In this document: positions 40,683 to 56,704 of the stretch, piece by piece | Layout: every line of letters begins with the position of its first letter | Position numbering within the stretch: the stretch's first letter is position 1 | From: Candidatus Spongiisociaceae bacterium | GTDB lineage: Bacteria; Actinomycetota; Acidimicrobiia; Spongiisociales; Spongiisociaceae | Direction of reading: 5' to 3' | Assembly (NCBI GenBank): GCA_965262915.1 | Contig: OZ253564.1 | Location: 576,001 to 640,000, forward strand | DNA: 64,000 nt | Translations under genes and position numbers: made by a program | The notes under the pieces: model-generated | What the model was told of the DNA's origin: nothing | Seen by the model: only the letters and a program-made list of their open reading frames with translations | The model's database searches: none

Positions 40683-41947
<1,265 letters not shown>

Positions 41948-43650: not shown

Positions 43651-44120
43651 TTGTTGATAGCCAAAAGGATTGTGCTCTTGTTAGCTGCTCTGACACTGGT
43701 TGCCGGGGCGTGCGGCGGAGCCGAAGAAACCACCACAGATACAGGGCCGGTGACGGTGTCCACCACTGCTGGTTCTACGGCTGAAACGGTTGAAGCCACA
43801 ACCACCGAGGTAACGGTGGATCTGAGCCAAGCGGGTACTCTTGCCGAGGTTCAGGCCCGCGGTTCTCTGCGTTGTGGCGTTTCGACCAGCGCAATCGGCT
43901 TCGCCGAGCCTCAGGACGACGGTTCCTTCAAGGGATTCGACGCCGACTACTGCCGGGCCGTGGCTGCGGCGGTTCTCGGTGATGCCAACGCGGTGGGGTT
44001 CGTCGGTACCACAGCCGCTGAGCGCTTCAACGTTCTGGCCGCCGGTGAGATCGATGTGCTGTTCCGTAACACCACCTGGACGCAGAGCCGGGACACGGAG
44101 ATCGGCGGCGACTTCGGACT
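43651..44120 (+). pseudogene. AapJ/BztA-like amino acid ABC substrate-binding lipoprotein, 3'-truncated
   Basis: Lipobox LVAGAC, TLAEVQARG.L.CGV, GFDADYCRAVAAA, RNTTWT.SRD; similarity stops after about 155 aa. Confidence 0.85.
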
Positions 44121-44840
44121 CGAACCGCACAGTACCCCTATCATCCCAGGTCAGCAGCTTTTGACTTCAGGAGATTGTTACTTCGGGTGTTATATCGTGA
44201 TCGAGTGAAACCCCCTAATTTGCGGTCCCACGCTGCTACGCGGCATTCGTCGACGCCCATCAGTCCGCACATTTGCAGCGCCCGGCCCAGGTCCATCCCA
44301 CTCGCGGCGATCGCTTTGAACGCTACGGCACGTCCGGCGAGGTCGTGTGCGTAGGTTGGAGGTGAAGTCGAACCGGACATCGGTGGTATCCAGCTTGGCG
44401 GCGAATTCGTCGCCGCCAGACGCTCTATCCGCAGCCTGGCGTTCTCCCGCTCCAGTTCCCCGAGTCGTCCCCGCTCACTGCAAGTGAGCCCTTCCGCTCA
44501 GCCCTGTTGATCTCATCCTGACCTACCCAGTTGCCCAGGGTGTGCGCCGAGCTGCGCCGCCGTGGTCGGCGGGTGAACCACAAACGTGTCGAGCGGCTGA
44601 CGAAGCGCCACCACCTCCCGGGTTTCGTGCCCCACAAGCTCGCAGTGCGGCACCTTCTGAGGCACGGACCTACCAGCGCCTCCGATCCGGGGCTGCTTGA
44701 GCGCTTGGAGGTCAGCCGGGCGCAAGCCACCCAGGTGCTCCGCCGCCTCGAAGACGCCGAGTTCGTGTACGCATTCCAGGACAGAGGGGAGTCGGCCGTC
44801 CCCGAAAGCTGTACGCAACTCGTCTCAGCCACGAGGAGAC

Positions 44841-45156
44841 TGGAGTTCCCCCCATGGGCTGGACACTTGGTTTATGCGGCCGTGTGATGGTAGTAGTTGT
44901 CCTCCCATTCGTTCGGTGGCTGTTGCCCGATCGTGGAGTGAAGCCGGCGGGGGTTGTACCAGGCTTCGATCCAGTACCGGATCGATAGGCGGGCCTGGCG
45001 GCGGCTTCGGTAGTCGGCTCGGTTGACGAGTTCCTTCTTGAGGGTGCCGAGAAACGACTCGGCGGCGGCGTTGTCCCAGCACACCCCGATCCGTCCCACC
45101 GACTGTGCGATGCCATATGCCCGGCACAGCTGGGCGGTGGCCCTCAAGGTGAATTG
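44841..45156 (-). mobile_element. 3' part of an IS3 element (integrase C-terminus and right IR)
   Basis: QFT...QSVGRIGVCWDNAAAESF..TLKKE...WYN.RRLHSTIG; IR TGGAGTTCCCCCCATGGGCTGGAC at 44841 resembles the IR at 42116. Confidence 0.85.
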
Positions 45157-45431
45157 CCCGGGTTCAAGGGGTCGTTGCAACACTGCCTTGTTTGAGGGAG
45201 TGTAGGTTGGAGTTCCCCCCGGTGGCCGGACGAGACGCGTGATTTCACGCCGTGGCTGGCTGAGAACCTGGACCTGTTGGGGGAGGAACTCGGGCCGGGT
45301 TTGGAGGCTGTCGGGAGTCGGATCCAAACCGTTTTGTGCCTTTCGTGAAGGGAATCTGGGGAGTTACGACCCTCTATTCGGGCCCTGGGGTGGTACCAGG
45401 CTACCGGTTGCCTTCACAGAAGGGGCATTCC
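45157..45431 (+). repeat. 275-bp inverted repeat, right copy
   Basis: Reverse complement of 40683-40957. Confidence 0.93.
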
Positions 45432-45987: not shown

Positions 45988-46298
45988 AGACAAAGAGATT
46001 TTATGTCTAAATGGCCTTGTCTTTTCGCCAGCAGTTTGCTGAAATAGACGGATGTACTTGGGTCGATACCCTGATGGATCTGCAGTCTTGATGTCGCCCA
46101 ACGGTTTCGGTCTGCGGCTGTTGGCTGTCGCCCGGATTCGTCTTTGGGTGAAGAGGTATAACTGGACAATTGCTGGGGTTTGTCGACGTTGGCTGCGCCT
46201 GAGGCGGCGCGCCCGCGTCGGGACCTGCGGCGCGGACTCTGCGCCCGATGGTCTTGAGGACACGCCGACGTTGCCAGAGCCGACGCGGGGGCCGGCCG

Positions 46299-46892
46299 GT
46301 GGACATCGTTGCTGATCTCGCCGTGATCGGCGCCGCCTCGGTGCTGTTGCTCAGCGGATCCTCCAAGATCGCGCGGCCTCGCCCCATCACGACCACCCTG
46401 GTGATGCTTTGGAACACCGCCACCAGACAGGCCCGGTCAGCTGCCTCGCCTCGGCTCGGGCTGATGCTGGGAGTCGGCGAGATGGGCCTCGCCGCCGTCG
46501 TTGCGACGGTGCGGTCCTGGCCGGCGGGCCTAGTCCTTGTGCTCTTCGCAGCGGGATTGGCGGCCGCGGGGGTGATGGGAGTGCTGAGCGGCGGCGAGGT
46601 ACCGTGCGCCTGCTTCGGCAAGGGCGACCGGACCCTGGGCTACGGGCACATCCTGCAGCTTCCGTTGTGGATCTTCGCAGCGTGGGCGGTGGCCCAGGGC
46701 GGAACCCTGTTCAGCGCGGGCACACGTCTCGAGCAGACGCTGGCAATGCTCGCAGTGTGCACCGCCCTCTCGACAGCGTTGCAGGTTGCGAGAGCATGGC
46801 GAGCGGTCTACCCGATCGCGCGGCAGCGCAGGAAGGGCGCGGCTGAGGCTGCGGTCCTGCCGCCGGCCGGTGCGGGGGTCTCCTCGTGGTAG
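46299..46892 (+). CDS. MauE/DoxX-family redox membrane protein
   Basis: LLLSG.SKI, GE..LA, VPCACFG (the CxCFG motif of MauE), several TM helices; start at GTG 46299 or ATG 46248. Confidence 0.8.
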   Translation: MDIVADLAVIGAASVLLLSGSSKIARPRPITTTLVMLWNTATRQARSAASPRLGLMLGVGEMGLAAVVATVRSWPAGLVLVLFAAGLAAAGVMGVLSGGEVPCACFGKGDRTLGYGHILQLPLWIFAAWAVAQGGTLFSAGTRLEQTLAMLAVCTALSTALQVARAWRAVYPIARQRRKGAAEAAVLPPAGAGVSSW

Positions 46893-47506
46893 TCGCCGCC
46901 CTGATCATCTCGATTGCGGCCCTGCTCCTGAGCGGGTTCGTCGCGCTGGCTGTAATGGAGGTGGTCGCCGAGAGGCCAGCCGGTCCGAGACAGCCTGCCG
47001 AGGACTCCATCGAGGAGTTCGAGCTGTCACCGGCAGTGGCCGGGACCTCGGCCAGCTCGCACGGGCTGCCCGATCGGATCGACGGCGCCTCCGCACACCT
47101 TGTGCTCGTGATCTCGCCTCGGTGCTCGATGTGCAAGAAGCTGGCCCTCTCCTTCGACGGGAAGATTCCAGCCCATCTCACGGTCGTGGTGGCCGCGACG
47201 GACGCCGTCCGCATGAGGAAATGGGCCGCCGAGAGCGGGCTGTCGCTGCGGAGGACGGTGTTCGACGACGACATGACCATCGTGAACGGGCTCGAGGTGT
47301 CCTCTAGCCCGACAGTCGTGGGGTTCGTCAACGGCACGGTCGCGTTCGTCGCAGGAGTTGGCGGCCGCCGAGCTCTGGATGACCTGCTGGAGCAACGCAT
47401 TGCGATTCTCGAGCAGGTTCCGAGCGTCGACGCCCCCGAGGAGACAGATGCCGCCGTGTCGGATACCGGCGACGGCTCGCGGGGGAGCCGGACCCGTGGT
47501 CCTTGA
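46886..47506 (+). CDS. Membrane-anchored thioredoxin-like protein (MauD/TlpA-like)
   Basis: N-terminal TM helix, LVLVISPRCSMCKKL (CxxC), V.SSP.VV cis-Pro loop. Confidence 0.78.
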   Translation: MVVAALIISIAALLLSGFVALAVMEVVAERPAGPRQPAEDSIEEFELSPAVAGTSASSHGLPDRIDGASAHLVLVISPRCSMCKKLALSFDGKIPAHLTVVVAATDAVRMRKWAAESGLSLRRTVFDDDMTIVNGLEVSSSPTVVGFVNGTVAFVAGVGGRRALDDLLEQRIAILEQVPSVDAPEETDAAVSDTGDGSRGSRTRGP

Positions 47507-48194
47507 GTTCGTGTCGGCTGTCGGTCTGTTCCTGGGCGGATATCTGCAGAGACACAGTCCTTGAGGCGTCTCCTTCGTGGGCCAGTTCGGCCCCACGTTT
47601 GCGACGAGCAGAGGCATTCGACGGGTGTCTCGCAGCGGTGTCTACGTGCTGGGCGCCCTGCTGTCCTCGGGGATGTTCATTCTCGCGGTCGACATGACAG
47701 CGGGGCACTTCTCTCGAGATGTCCTAGGCGGCGACCGGTCCCGGGCCGCGGCGCTCGTCCTGGTGAGCGTGCTGATCCTCATCGACGCGATCCGGCTGTG
47801 GGGCGGACGCTCCACCTCCTTCGGACCGAACCGGCAGACCCCCTACGCCTGGCGAGCGAGAGGCTGGCCGGGCGTTCTCGGCTGGGGCCTCGACACCGGG
47901 GTTCCGCTCACGACGATTAGGACATCGTCGCTTCCCGTGCTGGGCGTGGTGCTGGTGGCCACCGGACACGGCGGCCCGCTGCACGGCCTGGCCTACGGCT
48001 CGGGCCTGGCGGTCGGCCTTCTCGGCGGAGTGGTTGCGATGTCGCCGCGCGGCGACATCCGAAGCGTGATGGCCGAACTGCTGCGGCGCCGCCGCGCTCT
48101 GAGGCCGGTCATGGTGACGGTGGCTCCGTCCGCGCTGATGATCGGCGTGCTCGTGACCGCCGCGCTGGCGGCGCCCGGCACGGCGGCACCATGA
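47496..48194 (+). CDS. MauF/CcdA-like multi-pass membrane protein with in-frame UGA at codon 23 (putative selenocysteine)
   Basis: RBS GGGGGAG and GTG 47496; reads MVLEFVSAVGLFLGGYLQRHSP[TGA]GVSFVGQF... in one frame; RQTP..W...GWGLDTG..TT; hairpin at 47577-47596. Confidence 0.7.
47565..47606 (+). promoter_or_regulatory. Candidate bacterial SECIS element
   Basis: Upper stem GTGGGCC/GGCCCCAC (one bulge), loop AGTTC 19 nt after the UGA, lower stem CGTC/GACG. Confidence 0.6.
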
Positions 48195-51100
48195 GGCGGG
48201 CTGGGATCCGCGCGGGGCCCGCGGCAGGGGTTGCCGGGCGAGTCCGCCGGGTGTTGTCCGGGCTGGTGCTTGCCGCGGTGGTCGCAGCCGGGATCGGACC
48301 CGGGGGGTCTTGGGCTCAAGTGGGCGACGGCGACGATGAGGGTCGTCATGACGGCTTCGATGATGTGGTCTCGGGTGTGCACGCGTCGGCGATTGATGCT
48401 CTGGCCCAGTTGGGGGTCTTCGAGGGCACCGAGTGCGGCGAGGGGCTGTTCTGTCCCGACGAGCCCATCCGGCGCTGGGTGATGGCGGTGTGGCTGGTGC
48501 GCGTCCTCGAGACGCCGTTGCCCGAGGCCGGCGCGTCGCGCTTCTCTGACGTGGACCCCCAGCAGTGGTGGTCGCGCCATGTGGAGGCCCTGGCCGATCT
48601 GGAGATCACCGCAGGCTGCTCGCGATCGCCGGCCCGGTACTGCCCCGACGAGGTGGTCAGCCGGGCCCAGATGGCGTCGTTCCTGGCCCGGGCGTTCCAC
48701 TTGGAGCCCTCCGAGGAGGGTGAGCGCTTCAGCGACGTGTCGGGCGGCGTGCATGCGGCGAACATCGACGCGCTGGCCGCGAGCGGTATCACCGCAGGCT
48801 GCGCTACCGACCCGGCGCGCTATTGCCCGACCAGGGCCACCACCCGCGCCCAGATGGCATCGTTCCTCAAACGGGCCCGCACCATGTTCATAGGCCCCTG
48901 CCCGACCGAGGCCACAGACGACACCGGCACCACCACACCAAGCACCGGGTCGCCCCCAAGCACCGGGTCGCCCCCAAGCACCGGGTCGCCCCCAAGCACC
49001 GGGTCGCCCCCAAGCACCGGGTCGCCCCCAAGCACCGGGTCGCCCCCAAGCACCGGGTCGCCCCCAAGCACCGGGTCGCCCCCAAGCACCAGGCCTGGTG
49101 TGGTGGTGCCGGGTGCGCCACGCGGTGTGGTGGTGGCGCCGGATGATGGGGAATTGTTGGTGTCCTGGTCGGCGCCGAGCGAGCTGGTGGGCGTGTCGTC
49201 GGTGACCTATGTGGTGGAGTGGCGCTTGGACACCCAGCCCTTTGGCGGGGGGCGCCGGTTGTTGGGTGTGTCGGAGGAGTCCGCGACGATCTCGGGGTTG
49301 GTGAACGGCGCGATGTACGCCGTGCGTGTGTCGGCGGTCTTGTCGGGAAGCCGGGGGCCATGGTCCGAGCCGGTGCCGGGCGCGCCCGGGCGGGTGCTGG
49401 GCGCGCCCCGTGAACTCGTGACCGAGAGGGGCGATCGGGAGTTGGGGTTGTCTTGGGAGCCGCCGGGTGATCCGGGAGGCTTGGAGCCGGGAGACTTCCT
49501 CGCGCCTGAGTACTATGTCGTGCAGTGGGCCGTGGAGGGCGAGTCCTACAGCCTGGACCGCCTGCTCGAGGTGACGGAGACCTCCGCGACGATCACAGGG
49601 CTGGACAACGGCACCCTCTACAGAGTGCGGGTCGCCGCGGTGCGGGTCGTCGCGGTGCCCGTTGCGAGCCCGGAGCTGTGGTCGGAGGCCACTGGCGTGC
49701 CTGCGGTCCCGCCGGACGCGCCCAGCGGCCTGATGGCCGCGGCCGGCGATCAACAGCTGATGCTGTCGTGGGTGTCGGGCGAGTCGGGAGGCTTGCCGGT
49801 AACCGAGCAGCGGCTGCAGTGGCGCTCGAACTCGCAGTTCTTCAGCGAGGACCGGCAACTCGTCATCGGCGACGACACCTCCGCGACGATCACAGGGCTG
49901 GACAACGGCACCCGCTATTGGGTGCGGGTGGCCGCGGTGAGCGGTGCCGGGGTCTCGGACTGGTCCCCTCATGCGTCGGGCCGCCCCGCGACGCGGCCGG
50001 GGGCGCCCGGCGGTCTGGAGGCGACCCGGGACAACCAGTCCTTGGTGCTGTCCTGGGACCGGCCGGCGGACAGCGGCGGGGCGGTGTCGTTGAGCTATGT
50101 GGTGCAGTGGCGCTCGGACGCCCAGTCCTTCAGTGCGGCACGCGAACTGGAGGCGGCGGACACGTTCGCGACGGTGACCTCGCTGGTGAACGGCACGGTC
50201 CACTGGGTGCGTGTCGCGGCCGTCAACGACGACGCGGACGCGGGCCGGGGGGCATGGTCCGAGCCGGTGTCGCGCACCCCGGCCACGAGGCCCGGGGCGC
50301 CACGGCGTGTGGCGGCGACTCGCGGCGACGGGTCTTTGGCTGTGACCTGGGCTGCGCCGGCCGAGTCGGGCGGCGCAGCGGTGGAGGGCTATGTGGTGCA
50401 GTGGCGCTCGGACGCCCAGTCCTTCAGCACGGCCCGCCAGCGGACCACCACTTCGACGTCGGCGACCGTGCCTGGGCTGGTGAACGGCACCACCTACACG
50501 GTGCGGGTCGCCGCGGTCAACAACGTCGGCGCCGGGGCGTGGTCCGAGCCGGTGTCGCGCACCCCGGCCACGAGGCCCGGGGCGCCACGGCGTGTGGCGG
50601 CGACTCGCGGCGACGGGTCTTTGGCTGTGACCTGGGCTGCGCCGGCCGAGTCGGGCGGCGCAGCGGTGGAGGGCTATGTGGTGCAGTGGCATGCCAGCGG
50701 CCAGTCCTTCAGCACGGCCCGCCAGCGGACCACCACTTCGATGTCGGCGACCGTGCCTGGGCTGGTGAACGGCACCGCCTACTGGGTGCGGGTCGCCGCG
50801 GTCAACAACGTCGGCGCCGGGGCGTGGTCCGAGCCGGTGTCGCGCACCCCGGCGACGAGGCCGGGGGCGCCGGTGATCGAAGCGGTCGACGGGGGCAGCG
50901 GCCGGCTCGTGGTTCGCTGGGCCGCGCCCGCGAACGGCGGGTTTCCGGTGAGGAGCTACCAGCTTCAGTGGAAAACTGACAGCCAGACCTTCAGCACGGC
51001 CCGCCAGCGGACCACCACTTCGACGTCGGCGACCGTGCCTGGGCTGGTGAACGGCACCGCCTACTGGGTGCGGGTCGCCGCGGTCAACAACGTCGGCGCG

Positions 51101-54100
51101 GGGGCGTGGTCCGAGCCGGTGTCGGGCATCCCGGCGTCGGCGCCGGGGGCGCCACGCGACCTGGTCGTGACACCCGGCAACGGCCAGCTCGGACTGTCCT
51201 GGCAGCCGCCCGGCGACACCGGCGACGTCGCGGTCGAGTACGTGGTGCAGTGGCGCTCGGGATCCGAGCAATACAGCTCGGCCCGCAGCCAGACCACCGG
51301 CGAGGACTACGCCACGGTCACGGGGCTGGCCAACGGCACCGCCTACTGGGTGCAGGTCACCGCGAACAGCTCCGCGGGCGCGGGGGGCTCCACGGAGGCC
51401 ACCAACGTCGTTCCACGCACCACCCCGTCGGCGCCGCTGCGCCTGGAGGCCACCGTCGGCGACGGCTCACTTGCCCTGCAATGGCAGCCGCCGTCCAGCG
51501 ACGGCGGCGACAGCGTCAGCGGCTACATCGTCCAGTGGAGGGCCGACGGCGAGGACTACGCCACGACCCGCCAACTCGATGCGGCGGGCACGTCCGCGGC
51601 GATAACCGGGCTGGCCAACGGCACCCCCCACACCGTTCGGGTCGCCGCGGTCAACGCGGCGGGCGCCGGGGCATGGTCTACTGAGGCCACGAAGACCCCC
51701 GCAGGCGTGCCGGACGCGCCCCGCGAGGTCACCGCCGCGAGCGGCGACCGGGCCCTGGACGTGTCCTGGGAGCCACCCCCGAACAACGGCTCAGAGATCA
51801 AGCACTATGTGGTCCAATGGAAGGCGGGCGGCGACTACAGCACGGCCCGCCAGCGGACCACCACTTCGACGTCGGCGACCGTGCCTGGGCTGGTGAACGG
51901 CACCGCCTACTGGGTGCGGGTCGCCGCGGTCAACAACGTCGGCGCCGGGGCGTGGTCCGAGCCGGTGTCGCGCACCCCGGCGACGAGGCCGGGGGCGCCG
52001 GTGATCGAAGCGGTCGACGGGGGCAGCGGCCGGCTCGTGGTTCGCTGGGCCGCGCCCGCGAACGGCGGGTCTCCGGTGAGGAGCTACCAGCTTCAGTGGA
52101 AAACTGACAGCCAGACCTTCAGCACGGCCCGCCAGCGGACCACCACTTCGACGTCGGCGACCGTGCCTGGGCTGGTGAACGGCACCGCCTACTGGGTGCG
52201 GGTCGCCGCGGTCAACAACGTCGGCGCGGGGGCGTGGTCCGAGCCGGTGTCGGGCATCCCGGCGTCGGCGCCGGGGGCGCCACGCGACCTGGTCGTGACA
52301 CCCGGCAACGGCCAGCTCGGACTGTCCTGGCAGCCGCCCGGCGACACCGGCGACGTCGCGGTCGAGTACGTGGTGCAGTGGCGCTCGGGATCCGAGCAAT
52401 ACAGCTCGGCCCGCAGCCAGACCACCGGCGAGGACTACGCCACGGTCACGGGGCTGGCCAACGGCACCGCCTACTGGGTGCAGGTCACCGCGAACAGCTC
52501 CGCGGGCGCGGGGGGCTCCACGGAGGCCACCAACGTCGTTCCACGCACCACCCCGTCGGCGCCGCTGCGCCTGGAGGCCACCGTCGGCGACGGCTCACTT
52601 GCCCTGCAATGGCAGCCGCCGTCCAGCGACGGCGGCGACAGCGTCAGCGGCTACATCGTCCAGTGGAGGGCCGACGGCGAGGACTACGCCACGACCCGCC
52701 AACTCGATGCGGCGGGCACGTCCGCGGCGATAACCGGGCTGGCCAACGGCACCCCCCACACCGTTCGGGTCGCCGCGGTCAACGCGGCGGGCGCCGGGGC
52801 ATGGTCTACTGAGGCCACGAAGACCCCCGCAGGCGTGCCGGACGCGCCCCGCGAGGTCACCGCCGCGAGCGGCGACCGGGCCCTGGACGTGTCCTGGGAG
52901 CCACCCCCGAACAACGGCTCAGAGATCAAGCACTATGTGGTCCAATGGAAGGCGGGCGGCGACTACAGCACGGCCCGCCAGCTGGAGGCGGCGGGCAACA
53001 CGGCGACGGTGACCGCTCTGGTGAACGGCACCGCCTACTGGGTGCGGGTCGCCGCGGTCAACAACGTCGGCGCCGGGCCGTGGTCCACCGAGGCCACGAA
53101 GACCGCCGCCACCGTGCCGAGCGCGCCCCGCAACCTGACAGTCGAACGCCGCAACTCGGCCCTGGCCGCGACGTGGACCGCGCCCGCCTCAACCGGCGGC
53201 CTGGCGATCGAGGAGTACCAGATTCAGTGGACGACCGACCCCAGCGACTACGGACCGGACAAGGAGGGCACCGTGACAGGCACGACGGCGACGCTCCCCT
53301 TCCTGGTCAACGGCACCGAATACATGGTGCGGGTCGCGGCGGTCAACGGCATCGGCGCCGGGGCATGGTCCACCCAGGAGTCAGGCACTCCCTCCCCTCC
53401 CCCGACGGTGCCGGGGCGGCCCGAGATCGACGCGGTGGACGCTGCGGACCGCCGGCTGGTGGTGCGCTGGAGCCCGCCCGCGAACGACGGCGGCGACGAC
53501 ATCACCGGCTACATAGTGCGCTGGCGCACCCAACTCGGCTCCTACAACGCCGCCAACACGCACCCGGGGATCGGCGCGTCGGTATCGAGCGACACGATCG
53601 ACGAGCTGGACAAGAACACCCGGTACTGGGTACAGGTTGCCGCGGTCAACGGCATCGGCGCCGGGCGGTGGTCCGACGCTGTGTCGGCCACCATCCCGAT
53701 GACCGCGCCGGGCGCGCCTCTCGGCCTGGCGGTCGCTGGAGGCGACGCCGAGCTCCAGCTGTCATGGAGGCAGCCCCACGACACCGGAGGCGCCCAGCCC
53801 CTCACCTACGTCGTGCAATGGCGCTCCGGCGACCAGCAATACGACACGACACGCCAACAGACGACCGTCTCGACGTCAGCGACGATCACGGGGCTCGACA
53901 ACGGCACCCGATACTGGGTGAAGGTCACCGCGACCAACGCCGAGGGGTCCACACCCGGCGTCGAACGCGACGGCACCCCGCTGACCGGGCCCGGCCCACC
54001 CACGATGGTCGAGTTCACAAGCGACCCCATGGCGCCGGGCCGGCTGGTGCTGTCGTGGGCCGCTCCCGACGACAACGGCGGAACCGCCCTCACCGGATAC

Positions 54101-56704
54101 ATGGTGCGCTGGAGAGTCCACGGCGAGCGCGACCACGAAGAGGATCGTGTGGGCGCCGCGAGCCTCAGCCACCGGATCGACGGGCTGGTCAGCGGCACCA
54201 GGTACTGGGCACAGGTCCGCGCCTTCAACCGGGTCGGCAACGGGCCGTGGTCAGACCTCCTGTCCACGGTGCCGCTCGCCGTGCCGGGCGCGCCCCGAAC
54301 CGTCGCAGCAGAAGCCCGCGACGCGGGTCTCGGAGTGACCTGGCAGGCTCCTGCCAGCGACGGCGGCGACCCGATCACCGAATACAAGATCCAATGGAAA
54401 ACCACCTCCGGCGCGTTCGGCGCGGCCGCCGCCGTGGACGCCGCCACACACCTCCATGAGATCACCGCGCTCACCAACAACACCCGCTACGTCGTGCAGG
54501 TCGTGGCGGTAAACTCCCAAGGCGACGGCAGCGCCGCCCAGATCCACGCCACGCCGCTGCCGCCCACTGTCCCCGGACCGCCCATCATCGCCGCCGTGGT
54601 GCCTCGCGAGGGGGGAGTCACGGTCCAGTGGCTGCCGCCTCCCGACGACGGCAGAGCGCCCGTGAGCTCCTACCGGCTGAGCTGGCCCGGCGGCCACGCC
54701 GAGATCACCGACCCGACCGACCTCAGCCATGACATCGTCGGACTGGACTTCGCCCTCGACTCCGTGATCAGGATCTCCGCGGTCAACTCCCAGGGCGAGG
54801 GAACCCCCGCCGCGGTCAGGGCCCGCTCCAATCAGGTCCCGGGCCCGCCGCAACGCGTGCTCATCGCTGAGGACGACGGCAGCCTCGTCGTGCGGTGGAA
54901 ACCGCCCGGCGTCGTGTCGGCGTTCGTCGCCTCATACAGCGGGTTCGTGGTCACCGAGTACCTGGTGCAGTGGAAGACAAGCGGCCAGGAATACAGCACC
55001 GACCGCCAGGCCACGGTCACACCGGACTCCATCCCGGACAACTCCTACGGGGTCTACACGATCACGGGCCTCAACAACGGCTCGGACTACTCGGTGCGCG
55101 TCATCGCGGTCAACGAGGGCCGCCGGGGGCCGCCCGGGGAGGTGTCGGGTCGGCCGAGGCCGGCAGTGGAGGGCGCACCGCCTCGTGTCGTCGCCTACAA
55201 CTACGGCGAACGCACGGGTGAACTCTGGGTGGATTGGTGGCCGGCCATACGAGAACACGACGGGGTGCAGGCCTCCATCTACGAGCTGCGTTGGGGGCCT
55301 GCCGGCCAGGCGAGCAGTCCCTCCGGATACCCGAGGATCCCCGTGGGGCCCCGCGTCATCGACGTCGGCTCTGACGCAGTGGGCACCGTGCTCCGCGTGC
55401 GGGTGAGAGCAGTCTATGGTGGCACGTTCGGGCCGTGGGCCGAGACGCTGGTCGCGGTGGCGGCGCCTCCGACCATCCCGCAGCGACTCACTGCGACCCC
55501 CGGCGACGGCAGTGCATCGTTGCAGTGGGATCCGCCCGAGTCCGACAGGGGGTCGCCGATCTCTGCGTATGTGGTGATCGTGAACGAGGTCGACGACATC
55601 GAAGACCAGGCGTCCGTCGTCGTGACCGGCGAGAGCTACGAGATGACCGGGCTTGAGAACGGCCGGACATACACGCTTCATGTAGCGGCGCTCAACAACG
55701 TGGGCATCGGATATCGCAATGAAGTGATGGTGACGCCCAACGGCGAGATCGACGGGCCGAGCGTGCCCGGCGCGCCGGAGGACGTGGTGGTGGTGCCCGG
55801 CGACGGTTCGCTGGCGGTGTCGTGGGCGGCGCCGGCCGATCACGGCGGGGCCGCCGCCAGCGCGTACCAGGTGAGCTGGGAGGCGGCCGGGCAGCCCGGC
55901 ACAGCCCAGCAGGCCGATGTGGGCGCGGCGTTGAGCCATGTGATCACTGGCCTGGTCAACGGCACCGACTATGCGGTGGAGGTGACCGCAGCCAACTCCG
56001 CCGGGACGGGGCAGGCAGCGGCGGTGACAGCTGCGCCCGCGGCGGCGGGGGCGCAGCCGGGCGCGCCGGGCGGGATCGTGGTGGTGCCCGGCGACGGCAT
56101 GCTGTTGGTGTCATGGCATGCGGCGACCGACAGCACCGGGGCCGCCGCCAGCAGGTACGAGGTGAGCTGGGAGGCGGCCGGGCAGCCCGGCACAGCCCAG
56201 CAGGCCGATGTGGGCGCGGCGTTGAGCCATGTGATCACTGGCCTGGTCAACGGCACCGACTATGTGGTGGAGGTGACCGCAGCCAACTCCGCCGGCAAGG
56301 GACCGGCCATAGTGACGCGGGCGGTGCCCACCGGGGTGCCGAGCGCGCCCCGCGGAGTGGTCGCCGCGCGCAGCACGGTCGTGGCCGGCACGGCCAGGAT
56401 CCTGCTGAACTGGCTTCCGCCCGACGACAACGGCGGCACCAAGATCACCGCCTACCGGGTGTCATGGCGCGCCGACGGCGAGAGCTACGACGACTCGCAG
56501 TGCTCGCACCGCCGAGCCGATACCACCGCCACGGGCCACCCCATCGGCGACTTGGACGCCGACACCACTTACCACGTTCGGGTGGCCGCCATCAACGCCG
56601 CGGGGCCCGGCCCCGCAACCGAGATAACGATCCCGCCCGGGAACACTGCGGCAGCTGACAGGAGGCACACAGAATGGGCATCGCCAGACACTCGGAACAG
56701 ATGA
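48191..56704 (+). CDS. Giant secreted surface protein: signal peptide, three SLH-like repeats, Ser/Thr/Pro linker, 26 fibronectin type III domains
   Basis: F.DV...H...I.ALA..G(I/V)..GC...YCP....RAQMASFL repeats; PGAP...L.VSW..P...Y.VQW...GL.NGT.Y.VRVAAVN..G.G.WS repeats. Confidence 0.93.
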   Translation: MRRAGIRAGPAAGVAGRVRRVLSGLVLAAVVAAGIGPGGSWAQVGDGDDEGRHDGFDDVVSGVHASAIDALAQLGVFEGTECGEGLFCPDEPIRRWVMAVWLVRVLETPLPEAGASRFSDVDPQQWWSRHVEALADLEITAGCSRSPARYCPDEVVSRAQMASFLARAFHLEPSEEGERFSDVSGGVHAANIDALAASGITAGCATDPARYCPTRATTRAQMASFLKRARTMFIGPCPTEATDDTGTTTPSTGSPPSTGSPPSTGSPPSTGSPPSTGSPPSTGSPPSTGSPPSTGSPPSTRPGVVVPGAPRGVVVAPDDGELLVSWSAPSELVGVSSVTYVVEWRLDTQPFGGGRRLLGVSEESATISGLVNGAMYAVRVSAVLSGSRGPWSEPVPGAPGRVLGAPRELVTERGDRELGLSWEPPGDPGGLEPGDFLAPEYYVVQWAVEGESYSLDRLLEVTETSATITGLDNGTLYRVRVAAVRVVAVPVASPELWSEATGVPAVPPDAPSGLMAAAGDQQLMLSWVSGESGGLPVTEQRLQWRSNSQFFSEDRQLVIGDDTSATITGLDNGTRYWVRVAAVSGAGVSDWSPHASGRPATRPGAPGGLEATRDNQSLVLSWDRPADSGGAVSLSYVVQWRSDAQSFSAARELEAADTFATVTSLVNGTVHWVRVAAVNDDADAGRGAWSEPVSRTPATRPGAPRRVAATRGDGSLAVTWAAPAESGGAAVEGYVVQWRSDAQSFSTARQRTTTSTSATVPGLVNGTTYTVRVAAVNNVGAGAWSEPVSRTPATRPGAPRRVAATRGDGSLAVTWAAPAESGGAAVEGYVVQWHASGQSFSTARQRTTTSMSATVPGLVNGTAYWVRVAAVNNVGAGAWSEPVSRTPATRPGAPVIEAVDGGSGRLVVRWAAPANGGFPVRSYQLQWKTDSQTFSTARQRTTTSTSATVPGLVNGTAYWVRVAAVNNVGAGAWSEPVSGIPASAPGAPRDLVVTPGNGQLGLSWQPPGDTGDVAVEYVVQWRSGSEQYSSARSQTTGEDYATVTGLANGTAYWVQVTANSSAGAGGSTEATNVVPRTTPSAPLRLEATVGDGSLALQWQPPSSDGGDSVSGYIVQWRADGEDYATTRQLDAAGTSAAITGLANGTPHTVRVAAVNAAGAGAWSTEATKTPAGVPDAPREVTAASGDRALDVSWEPPPNNGSEIKHYVVQWKAGGDYSTARQRTTTSTSATVPGLVNGTAYWVRVAAVNNVGAGAWSEPVSRTPATRPGAPVIEAVDGGSGRLVVRWAAPANGGSPVRSYQLQWKTDSQTFSTARQRTTTSTSATVPGLVNGTAYWVRVAAVNNVGAGAWSEPVSGIPASAPGAPRDLVVTPGNGQLGLSWQPPGDTGDVAVEYVVQWRSGSEQYSSARSQTTGEDYATVTGLANGTAYWVQVTANSSAGAGGSTEATNVVPRTTPSAPLRLEATVGDGSLALQWQPPSSDGGDSVSGYIVQWRADGEDYATTRQLDAAGTSAAITGLANGTPHTVRVAAVNAAGAGAWSTEATKTPAGVPDAPREVTAASGDRALDVSWEPPPNNGSEIKHYVVQWKAGGDYSTARQLEAAGNTATVTALVNGTAYWVRVAAVNNVGAGPWSTEATKTAATVPSAPRNLTVERRNSALAATWTAPASTGGLAIEEYQIQWTTDPSDYGPDKEGTVTGTTATLPFLVNGTEYMVRVAAVNGIGAGAWSTQESGTPSPPPTVPGRPEIDAVDAADRRLVVRWSPPANDGGDDITGYIVRWRTQLGSYNAANTHPGIGASVSSDTIDELDKNTRYWVQVAAVNGIGAGRWSDAVSATIPMTAPGAPLGLAVAGGDAELQLSWRQPHDTGGAQPLTYVVQWRSGDQQYDTTRQQTTVSTSATITGLDNGTRYWVKVTATNAEGSTPGVERDGTPLTGPGPPTMVEFTSDPMAPGRLVLSWAAPDDNGGTALTGYMVRWRVHGERDHEEDRVGAASLSHRIDGLVSGTRYWAQVRAFNRVGNGPWSDLLSTVPLAVPGAPRTVAAEARDAGLGVTWQAPASDGGDPITEYKIQWKTTSGAFGAAAAVDAATHLHEITALTNNTRYVVQVVAVNSQGDGSAAQIHATPLPPTVPGPPIIAAVVPREGGVTVQWLPPPDDGRAPVSSYRLSWPGGHAEITDPTDLSHDIVGLDFALDSVIRISAVNSQGEGTPAAVRARSNQVPGPPQRVLIAEDDGSLVVRWKPPGVVSAFVASYSGFVVTEYLVQWKTSGQEYSTDRQATVTPDSIPDNSYGVYTITGLNNGSDYSVRVIAVNEGRRGPPGEVSGRPRPAVEGAPPRVVAYNYGERTGELWVDWWPAIREHDGVQASIYELRWGPAGQASSPSGYPRIPVGPRVIDVGSDAVGTVLRVRVRAVYGGTFGPWAETLVAVAAPPTIPQRLTATPGDGSASLQWDPPESDRGSPISAYVVIVNEVDDIEDQASVVVTGESYEMTGLENGRTYTLHVAALNNVGIGYRNEVMVTPNGEIDGPSVPGAPEDVVVVPGDGSLAVSWAAPADHGGAAASAYQVSWEAAGQPGTAQQADVGAALSHVITGLVNGTDYAVEVTAANSAGTGQAAAVTAAPAAAGAQPGAPGGIVVVPGDGMLLVSWHAATDSTGAAASRYEVSWEAAGQPGTAQQADVGAALSHVITGLVNGTDYVVEVTAANSAGKGPAIVTRAVPTGVPSAPRGVVAARSTVVAGTARILLNWLPPDDNGGTKITAYRVSWRADGESYDDSQCSHRRADTTATGHPIGDLDADTTYHVRVAAINAAGPGPATEITIPPGNTAAADRRHTEWASPDTRNR
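48941..49090 (+). repeat. 18-bp coding tandem repeat x8.3 (STGSPP linker)
   Basis: Perfect AGCACCGGGTCGCCCCCA units. Confidence 0.97.
50711..52982 (+). repeat. 1128-bp near-perfect tandem duplication (4 FN3 domains per unit)
   Basis: Identical shadow ORFs at 51106/52234 and 51061/52189, offset 1128; two substitutions seen. Confidence 0.92.

Follow-up and report, generated by a model that had tools for sequence, protein, structure and literature searches.

Bacterial selenoprotein genes of the SelB type carry an in-frame UGA together with a hairpin located in the coding sequence, the selenocysteine insertion sequence (SECIS), which has a G-U in its loop, and they are accompanied by the full set of selA, selB, selC and selD. 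The prototype of this element is the loop of Escherichia coli fdhF, in which the GpU is contacted by SelB. Models of the bSECISearch type define it as a stem-loop placed just past the UGA, with a G in the first two positions of the loop and a suitable distance between the UGA and the loop. Selenocysteine (Sec) that pairs with cysteine in a related protein usually marks a redox-active catalytic residue. Among the described proteins, the one closest to the subject of this report is MauF, a membrane protein that assists the maturation of methylamine dehydrogenase and for which, to our knowledge, no function is known. The proteins MauE and MauD are better described. According to a preprint (bioRxiv 10.64898/2026.03.05.709764), MauE complements dsbB in E. 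coli by means of a CXC site, usually followed by F-G, and its distribution is decoupled from the markers of methylamine dehydrogenase; the pathway proposed there is centred on MauE as a substitute for DsbB, with MauD as a DsbA-like partner. The locus presented here lies in a stretch of 64,000 nucleotides (the window, to which coordinates without a prefix refer) of contig OZ253564.1, assembly GCA_965262915.1, from a Candidatus Spongiisociaceae bacterium. The gene in question, at 47496-48194, resembles the SelB-type selenoprotein genes in all the features listed above, and it most likely encodes one membrane protein with Sec at the position of the invariant cysteine of MauF.

The list of open reading frames (ORFs) of the window contains two plus-strand entries, 47358..47564 (68 residues) and 47577..48194 (205 residues), which share the same frame and are separated by a single stop, the TGA at 47562-47564. 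The original prediction regarded them as one gene split by this lone TGA, with a good ribosome-binding site, a GTG start at 47496 overlapping the upstream stop, and no cysteine elsewhere in the protein. The elements so described are all present in the sequence. The GTG start overlaps the end of the preceding ORF, 46886..47506, whose stop is the TGA at 47504-47506, and the read-through product, of 232 residues with U at position 23, contains no cysteine. The elements on which the argument depends are the following:

47496..48194, plus strand: gene of the MauF-like membrane protein, most likely a selenoprotein; 232 codons plus the terminal TGA in a continuous frame
47562..47564, plus strand: in-frame UGA, probably read as Sec (residue 23); TGA in 16 of 16 loci, its column falling on Cys79 of MauF
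47481..47487, plus strand: Shine-Dalgarno-like GGGGGAG read from the sequence, 8 nucleotides ahead of the GTG at 47496
47576..47597, plus strand: SECIS-like hairpin of 8 base pairs with one bulged base on the 3' side, predicted with RNAfold

The product reads ...YLQRHSP-U-GVSFVGQFGP... around the UGA codon; in longer form the surroundings of U23 are GGYLQRHSP-U-GVSFVGQFGPTF, and the tryptic peptide covering the residue is HSP-U-GVSFVGQFGPTFATSR.

A first line of evidence for a coding function of the UGA is its conservation. Of 61 related genomes searched in six frames, four have the gene (G000, which is the genome of the window, G002, G007 and G010), and the TGA is in frame in all four copies; a fifth match, weak and partial, misses the region. 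Eleven further loci were obtained by scanning one genome per species, all of them from metagenome-assembled genomes of Acidimicrobiia whose record titles refer to Ca. Aldehydirespirator, Ca. Spongiisociaceae, Ca. Poriferisodalis and Acidimicrobiales, and a metagenome scan added one more readable locus, L033, together with two others that are unreadable upstream (L034 and L035). This gives 16 readable loci, or 14 non-redundant ones, since L016 equals L025 and L026 is nearly the same as L027. At 37-100% identity, every one of the 16 has TGA, and never TAA or TAG, at the same column, within the common motif S-P-TGA-[G/S]-x-[S/A]-F-[V/L]-G-Q-F; because both the codon and its flanking motif are kept throughout, the feature is more than chance. 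The terminal stops, on the other hand, vary among the 12 non-redundant complete genes (TGA in four, TAG in six, TAA in two). A start codon is found 20-24 codons 5' of the TGA in all 16 loci, with a stop just upstream of the start in five.

The segment ahead of the TGA also evolves as a coding sequence. Over the 14 non-redundant loci, the mean pairwise divergence at codon positions 1, 2 and 3 is 0.335, 0.225 and 0.529 in the 17 codons before the TGA, and 0.236, 0.069 and 0.519 in the four that separate the TGA from the annotated start. Upstream, synonymous codon differences amount to 459 in frame, compared with 94 and 71 in the two shifted frames. A recent nonsense mutation, or relatives with a residue other than cysteine at this column, had been named as results that would speak against Sec; homologues at 37-56% identity retain the TGA and have neither TGC, TGG nor any other codon there, which excludes a recent nonsense mutation. 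In a class-level survey, only two of 401 sampled genomes contained the family, the second of these (L032) without a readable N-terminal motif. One copy from a draft genome, L017 (G007:C12, minus strand, about 1951-1998 and downstream), keeps the Sec TGA and the motif, while its frame breaks some 20 codons past the TGA and a stop follows 78 codons past it, which reflects either a mistake in the assembly or a gene in decay.

The second line of evidence is the relationship to MauF. The reference used was the protein of Paracoccus denitrificans PD1222 plasmid 1 (WP_011750949.1), encoded in the order mauR-mauF-mauB-MauE-mauD-mauA and containing the segment ...GGLLSTWSPCGYSS...; five further annotated MauF proteins from plasmids of Paracoccus, Methylobacterium and Indioceanicola brought the set to six sequences from three genera. 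When the family profile was compared by hhalign with the single MauF, the probability was 72.2% (P 3.4e-5, 130 columns), and with the six MauF it was 89.7% (P 1.8e-6, 137 columns). The controls gave 2.0% for the CcdA of the same genome (P 0.025, 16 columns), 0.1% for its own MauE (P 0.57, 10 columns) and 0.4% for the Paracoccus MauE (P 0.17, 40 columns). In the alignment, U23 falls on the invariant Cys79 of MauF (WSPCG) and RQTP falls on AQVP, so that the pairing of UGA with cysteine that had been proposed as a check is obtained at the family level. The two groups share the same order of motifs, namely G-G-x-L-x-x-[WHY]-S-P-[C/U]-G, R-[AQ]-Q-[VT]-P and a block of the type Y/W-G-L-[SD]-[LT]-G. 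Where MauF has an invariant W-S-P-C-G-Y-S-S after the first conserved helix, the family has [HYF]-S-P-U-[GS]-x-[SA]-F. Both adjoin a gene of the MauE family and a gene of the MauD type for a thioredoxin-like protein with CxxC, and MauF, like the family, has no Pfam or NCBIfam model.

The differences are also clear. The family has Sec where MauF has cysteine; the window protein is shorter (232 residues against about 277) and lacks the N-terminal extension of about 55 residues found in MauF; and the gene order in the window is MauE, MauD-like, MauF-like, instead of mauF-mauB-mauE-mauD-mauA. Moreover, neither the light nor the heavy chain of methylamine dehydrogenase (PF02975, PF06433) was found in the genome, which is 96% complete, while both models match the Paracoccus plasmid. 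Given the lack of a methylamine dehydrogenase cluster, the window protein is classified as MauF-like and not as MauF proper. Since a Sec/Cys pair usually marks the catalytic redox residue, the comparison also singles out Cys79 of the Paracoccus MauF as the likely working residue, and it makes the role of MauF directly testable.

The initial reading of the S-P-C motif had invoked both MauF and proteins of the CcdA/DsbD type, and only the first half of this comparison stands. What the family shares with CcdA is the S-P-C tripeptide after the first hydrophobic helix (SFVSPCVLP in the CcdA of the same genome), as well as a similar size and a polytopic helical organization in the membrane. CcdA and DsbD have two conserved membrane-embedded cysteines, one in each repeat, whereas the family has only the Sec. 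Kinship with CcdA is not supported, in view of the hhalign control given above and of the lack of any PF02683 match among 61 family members at E values up to 1; the CcdA structure 5vkv gave a Foldseek E of 0.56 with a template modelling (TM) score of 0.33 and lay outside the top 50 rows of VIA-align. As a separate observation, the C-terminal half of an authentic MauF (L038:3738-4571) shows a weak hhalign match, 21.7%, to the second half of CcdA.

The host is equipped for Sec decoding. As had been requested of any genome encoding such a protein, selA (434 bits), selB (333 bits), selD (390 bits) and selC, a tRNA-Sec with the anticodon tca, are all present. The selA gene was found in the 14 host genomes checked (10 of 10 further hosts and four among the relatives) and in 58 of the 61 relatives, the unpublished genomes G032 and G043 being counted among them; as nearly every member of the order has selA, its co-occurrence with the gene represents consistency and not a test. 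Two textbook selenoprotein genes of the genome make use of UGA. One is selD itself (L005, G000:C1:4560939-4561865, minus strand), with an in-frame TGA in GAGUACK followed by a clean hairpin of 7 base pairs, GGCGCAG-GUU-CUGCGCC, that begins 26 nucleotides after the UGA. The other is an FdhA-like gene with the UGA in CNRTUHAPS. A CAGUUC located 28 nucleotides after this second UGA (0.014 expected per 40 nucleotides) was not used, as it is not clearly apical in the predicted folds. Two loci of the molybdopterin type lie outside the window, at G000:C1:1892217-1893479 (plus strand) and G000:C1:4719437-4720816 (minus strand); the FdhA-like one has the UGA, and the second molybdopterin-family match has an internal TAG, which could mean that there are two genes here or that one gene is broken, among other possibilities.

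The hairpin that follows the UGA of the MauF-like gene has the form expected from the models. Its arms, at 47576-47583 and 47589-47597, enclose the apical loop AGUUC at 47584-47588 according to RNAfold; the stem begins 12 nucleotides and the loop 19 nucleotides after the UGA, and the G occupies loop position 2. The loop, its distance and its G are therefore as first described; the stem differs from a plain, perfect one by its single bulge. The loop and most bases of the stem are nearly invariant in the alignment of 14 loci, and 89.8% of the cells are paired under one fixed structure. At the pair of columns 18-33, compensatory changes are seen in three loci (G-C to C-G twice and to A-U once). 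The apex of the selD element, GGUUC within GCGCA-GGUUC-UGCGC, resembles the AGUUC of the MauF-like gene; the distance from UGA to loop is 33 nucleotides in selD against 19 here. A lower stem CGUC/GACG predicted in the window was discarded, since it is not kept in the other loci.

The genes around the MauF-like gene suggest in which process the protein may take part. Four genes overlap start-to-stop, the ATG of the last one overlapping the stop of the selenoprotein gene (ATGA), and its three companions are:

46248..46892, plus strand: membrane protein of the MauE family with PCACFG, i.e., a CXC followed by F-G; PF07291, E 6.9e-7, 30.1 bits for a cut-off of 27
46886..47506, plus strand: membrane-anchored thioredoxin-like (MauD-like) protein with SPRCSMC; weak Pfam thioredoxin matches, E 0.16 and 0.26
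48191..56704, plus strand: giant wall protein of 2837 residues, a possible client, with an SLH domain and 25 fn3 stretches in Pfam

The MauD-like protein matches the Paracoccus MauD around the CxxC (BLASTP E 1e-4), and SPxCxxC is kept in all 12 rows of its homologues, 11 of which are non-redundant. A thioredoxin-like homologue is encoded within the flanks of 11 of 13 non-redundant loci. A tblastn of the window MauE against the plasmids gave no match. The linkage of the family to MauE becomes a physical one in P0116, a protein of 368 residues in which the family core (25-157) is fused to a MauE domain (177-299, PF07291, E 3e-14) with a CSCFGG motif. The giant wall protein has seven cysteines in its first 240 residues, six of which form three C-x(5-7)-C pairs in SLH-like repeats, and similar N-termini are encoded near the gene in L026/L027, L028 and L030. 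Its N-terminus also contains an Arg-rich, signal-like region, and the protein has a run of STGSPP repeats. The window MauE, with C-A-C-F-G, and the adjacent CxxC thioredoxin-like protein fit the MauE-centred disulfide pathway as far as the main text of the preprint describes it. In this main text there are zero occurrences of "MauF" and zero of "selen", and for this reason a third, selenium-bearing membrane component falls outside the pathway as published there.

A joint reading can be proposed from these data, with a probability of about 0.8: UGA codon 23 is decoded as Sec, the protein belongs to a MauF-like family, the Sec occupies the place of the MauF cysteine, and its role would be a redox one. 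The SelB/tRNA-Sec system would decode the codon, directed by the hairpin, and Sec would stand in for the invariant cysteine of W/H/Y-S-P-(C/U)-G. The Sec would be the redox residue, its selenol acting as the nucleophile of a module made up of MauE (DsbB-like, CXC), the MauD-like protein (CxxC) and the MauF-like protein. Transient Se-S bonds might be formed with the CxxC of the MauD-like protein or with the CXC of MauE, and the module may serve the formation or isomerisation of disulfides in exported proteins; a possible client would be the giant wall protein encoded in the same transcript, through the paired cysteines of its SLH domains, and not methylamine dehydrogenase. A wider and clearly more speculative extension, which we regard as possible and somewhat doubtful, is that the MauE/MauD pathway lacks a third catalytic component in its present description and that MauF-type proteins fill this place: a relay with a single chalcogen between the membrane or quinone side and an exported thioredoxin-like partner, here with Sec throughout, detached from methylamine dehydrogenase and serving SLH wall proteins. 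If true, this extension would make the system a selenium-dependent machine for oxidative folding in the cell envelope. The MauE-based disulfide pathway would then have one more component, which seems to be in use outside methylotrophy.

Several observations weigh against this reading and concern the element, the kinship and the role. Regarding the element, the 45-nucleotide hairpin stretch taken alone is unexceptional (z-score -1.38, with 23 of 200 shuffles folding at least as well), so the fold of a single sequence does not carry the case. Covariation is thin, with double changes at one pair in three cells, a number reached by 14 of 500 shuffles, and six of the 14 sequences fail the pair 18-33 under the fixed structure; in these six the bulge lies at the third base of the Pro codon instead of that of the Gly codon, and about seven pairs are kept. 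The peptide VGQFGP itself favours a hairpin, given a mean of about -7 kcal/mol for its synonymous recodings; the real hairpins are stabler than this mean in all 14 loci, although they reach only the 1.4-29th percentile. A scan of 47450-47700 with Rfam gave no match apart from one chance snoRNA row (E 6.5). The hairpin is thus conserved, with modest independent statistical support. Regarding the kinship, pairwise BLASTP against MauF is not significant (E 0.21) and no protein named MauF appears among 72 profile matches in the protein collection, for which reason the relationship to MauF is distant, and probable rather than certain. In addition, no form with cysteine was found inside the family, either among the 33 and 85 database matches described below or in the search with residues 1-60. 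Regarding the role, the protein has a single redox residue, without a conserved second cysteine column in alignments of 19 or 61 members; MauE is near only seven of 13 non-redundant loci within their flanks; and an SLH/Cys-pair protein is near only four of 14. Finally, the loop after the Sec (residues 18-46) includes five Arg and no acidic residue, which by the positive-inside rule suggests a location on the cytoplasmic side. Judged from the sequence, a Sec on that side or embedded in the membrane suggests a poor fit with direct exchange with an extracytoplasmic thioredoxin and a better one with a CcdA-like relay.

These last points leave some room for the alternative that deserves most attention, in which the UGA is decoded as Sec and the residue has another role, for example in binding a metal or in acting on a quinone or a small compound of sulfur or selenium. 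The substrate site would comprise R113, Q114, D133, R142 and Y167, which are the invariant polar residues of the family and cluster in RQTP and WGLDTG. The lone redox residue and the absence of MauE from the flanks of six of 13 loci point in the same direction, and the structural comparisons match the protein to no known fold. Neither the read-through protein nor the 61 family members match Pfam or NCBIfam. An AlphaFold2 model built on the alignment of 61 sequences is all helical, with a predicted local distance difference test (pLDDT) of 93.1 and a predicted TM score (pTM) of 0.88; it breaks at S21-P22, with U23 opening the second helix, which would place U23 at the kink that a proline introduces where the first hydrophobic helix passes into the next one. 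A profile search of the PDB had no matches at E values up to 10, the best Foldseek hit against the PDB had an E of 0.31, and the best Z of a wide VIA-align search, 5.1, is at the noise level for helical bundles. With matches this weak no known fold can be assigned, and a new fold is not thereby shown. Such a different role is nonetheless improbable, since the gene is tightly linked and translationally coupled to those of CxxC and CXC proteins, a natural fusion with MauE exists, and the related MauF is encoded together with a MauE and a MauD that serve to form disulfides.

Much less probable is an arrangement with two cistrons, in which the TGA is an ordinary stop that closes a conserved hydrophobic mini-ORF of 22 codons, GTG 47577 is the start of the main protein and the hairpin regulates its initiation. 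Some features could be taken in its favour. A possible ribosome-binding site, the GAGG within TGAGGC (47563-47566), lies 10 nucleotides ahead of this GTG; the codon is GTG or TTG in 13 of the 16 loci; and gene callers picked a start of this type in most entries, 24 of 85 family representatives beginning exactly with MGQF or an MSFVGQF-type sequence. However, three loci have another codon in place of the putative start (GTC in L022 and L033, GTA in L018) and retain the motif and the TGA; L028 has TTG there, and L033 has TGAAGC and so lacks the GAGG. The four codons between the TGA and the GTG show the codon-like divergence reported above, the two parts keep one frame and an identical distance from each other in all 16 loci, and the stop of the supposed mini-ORF would always be TGA where true stops vary. 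Besides, the putative start codon is buried in the stem, and MauF holds the homologous N-terminal helix and the cysteine in one chain.

The UGA could also be read through without Sec, by a near-cognate tRNA for Trp, Cys or Arg or through a local recoding signal. The statistical support of the hairpin is modest, and the identity of the inserted residue is deduced, which would agree with this possibility. Against it stand the complete and intact Sec machinery of the genome, the use of UGA in its selD and FdhA-like genes, and the fact that the aligned residue of MauF is cysteine, the usual counterpart of Sec. As TGA is the true stop of both the selenoprotein gene and the upstream gene, the code is not reassigned, and this explanation is slightly less credible still than the preceding one. 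A pseudogene with a nonsense mutation, or a TGA due to an assembly error, would recall the second TGA and the apparent frameshift of the draft-genome locus L017, and can be dismissed because independent assemblies agree on the column of the TGA in 16 of 16 loci, and its flanks are under purifying selection on both sides.

With the decoding of UGA as Sec as the preferred reading, the databases appear to hold this family in a mutilated form. It had been anticipated that automated annotation would truncate the gene, and this is what is found. The 33 matches in a collection of 5.8 billion proteins (clusters at 90% identity) have 134-206 residues and all begin after the TGA; in an exhaustive search giving 85 representatives at 50% identity, none aligns before query residue 26. 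The part preceding the TGA is thus reached by 0 of 33 and 0 of 85 matches, and a query with the N-terminal residues 1-60 recovered only one truncated, near-identical entry. Because all matches begin after the TGA, the family is systematically truncated in the databases, and every entry found among the 33 clusters and 85 representatives lacks the first helix and the probable catalytic residue. Three distant members of 211-215 residues, P0068, P0100 and P0114, have long, unrelated annotated N-termini and no GQF motif; they may lack the Sec helix, or their starts may have been mis-called.

The family represents a new one within a known kind, the bacterial selenoproteins, and comes mostly from metagenome-assembled genomes of Acidimicrobiia. 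Table 1 of a 2026 review (PMC13188914) lists 119 selenoprotein families; the present one is absent from that table, and no Pfam or NCBIfam identifier in it matches. No account of the family was found in the literature searched, although it may be listed in the supplementary data of deep-Sep, of BSepDB or of the Actinomarina preprint; in the main text of BSepDB, Acidimicrobiia, membrane and MauE are all unmentioned. Membership restricted to Sec, as seen here, is uncommon among bacterial selenoproteins.

Upstream of the operon, the window contains debris of insertion sequences at 40919-41575 (minus strand), 44872-45327 (minus strand) and 43651-44208 (plus strand). It comprises an ORF with HTH_21 and rve integrase domains, an ORF that looks by eye like the C-terminal part of a transposase, and an apparently truncated ORF for a solute-binding protein. 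The upstream neighbourhood of the operon has probably been rearranged.

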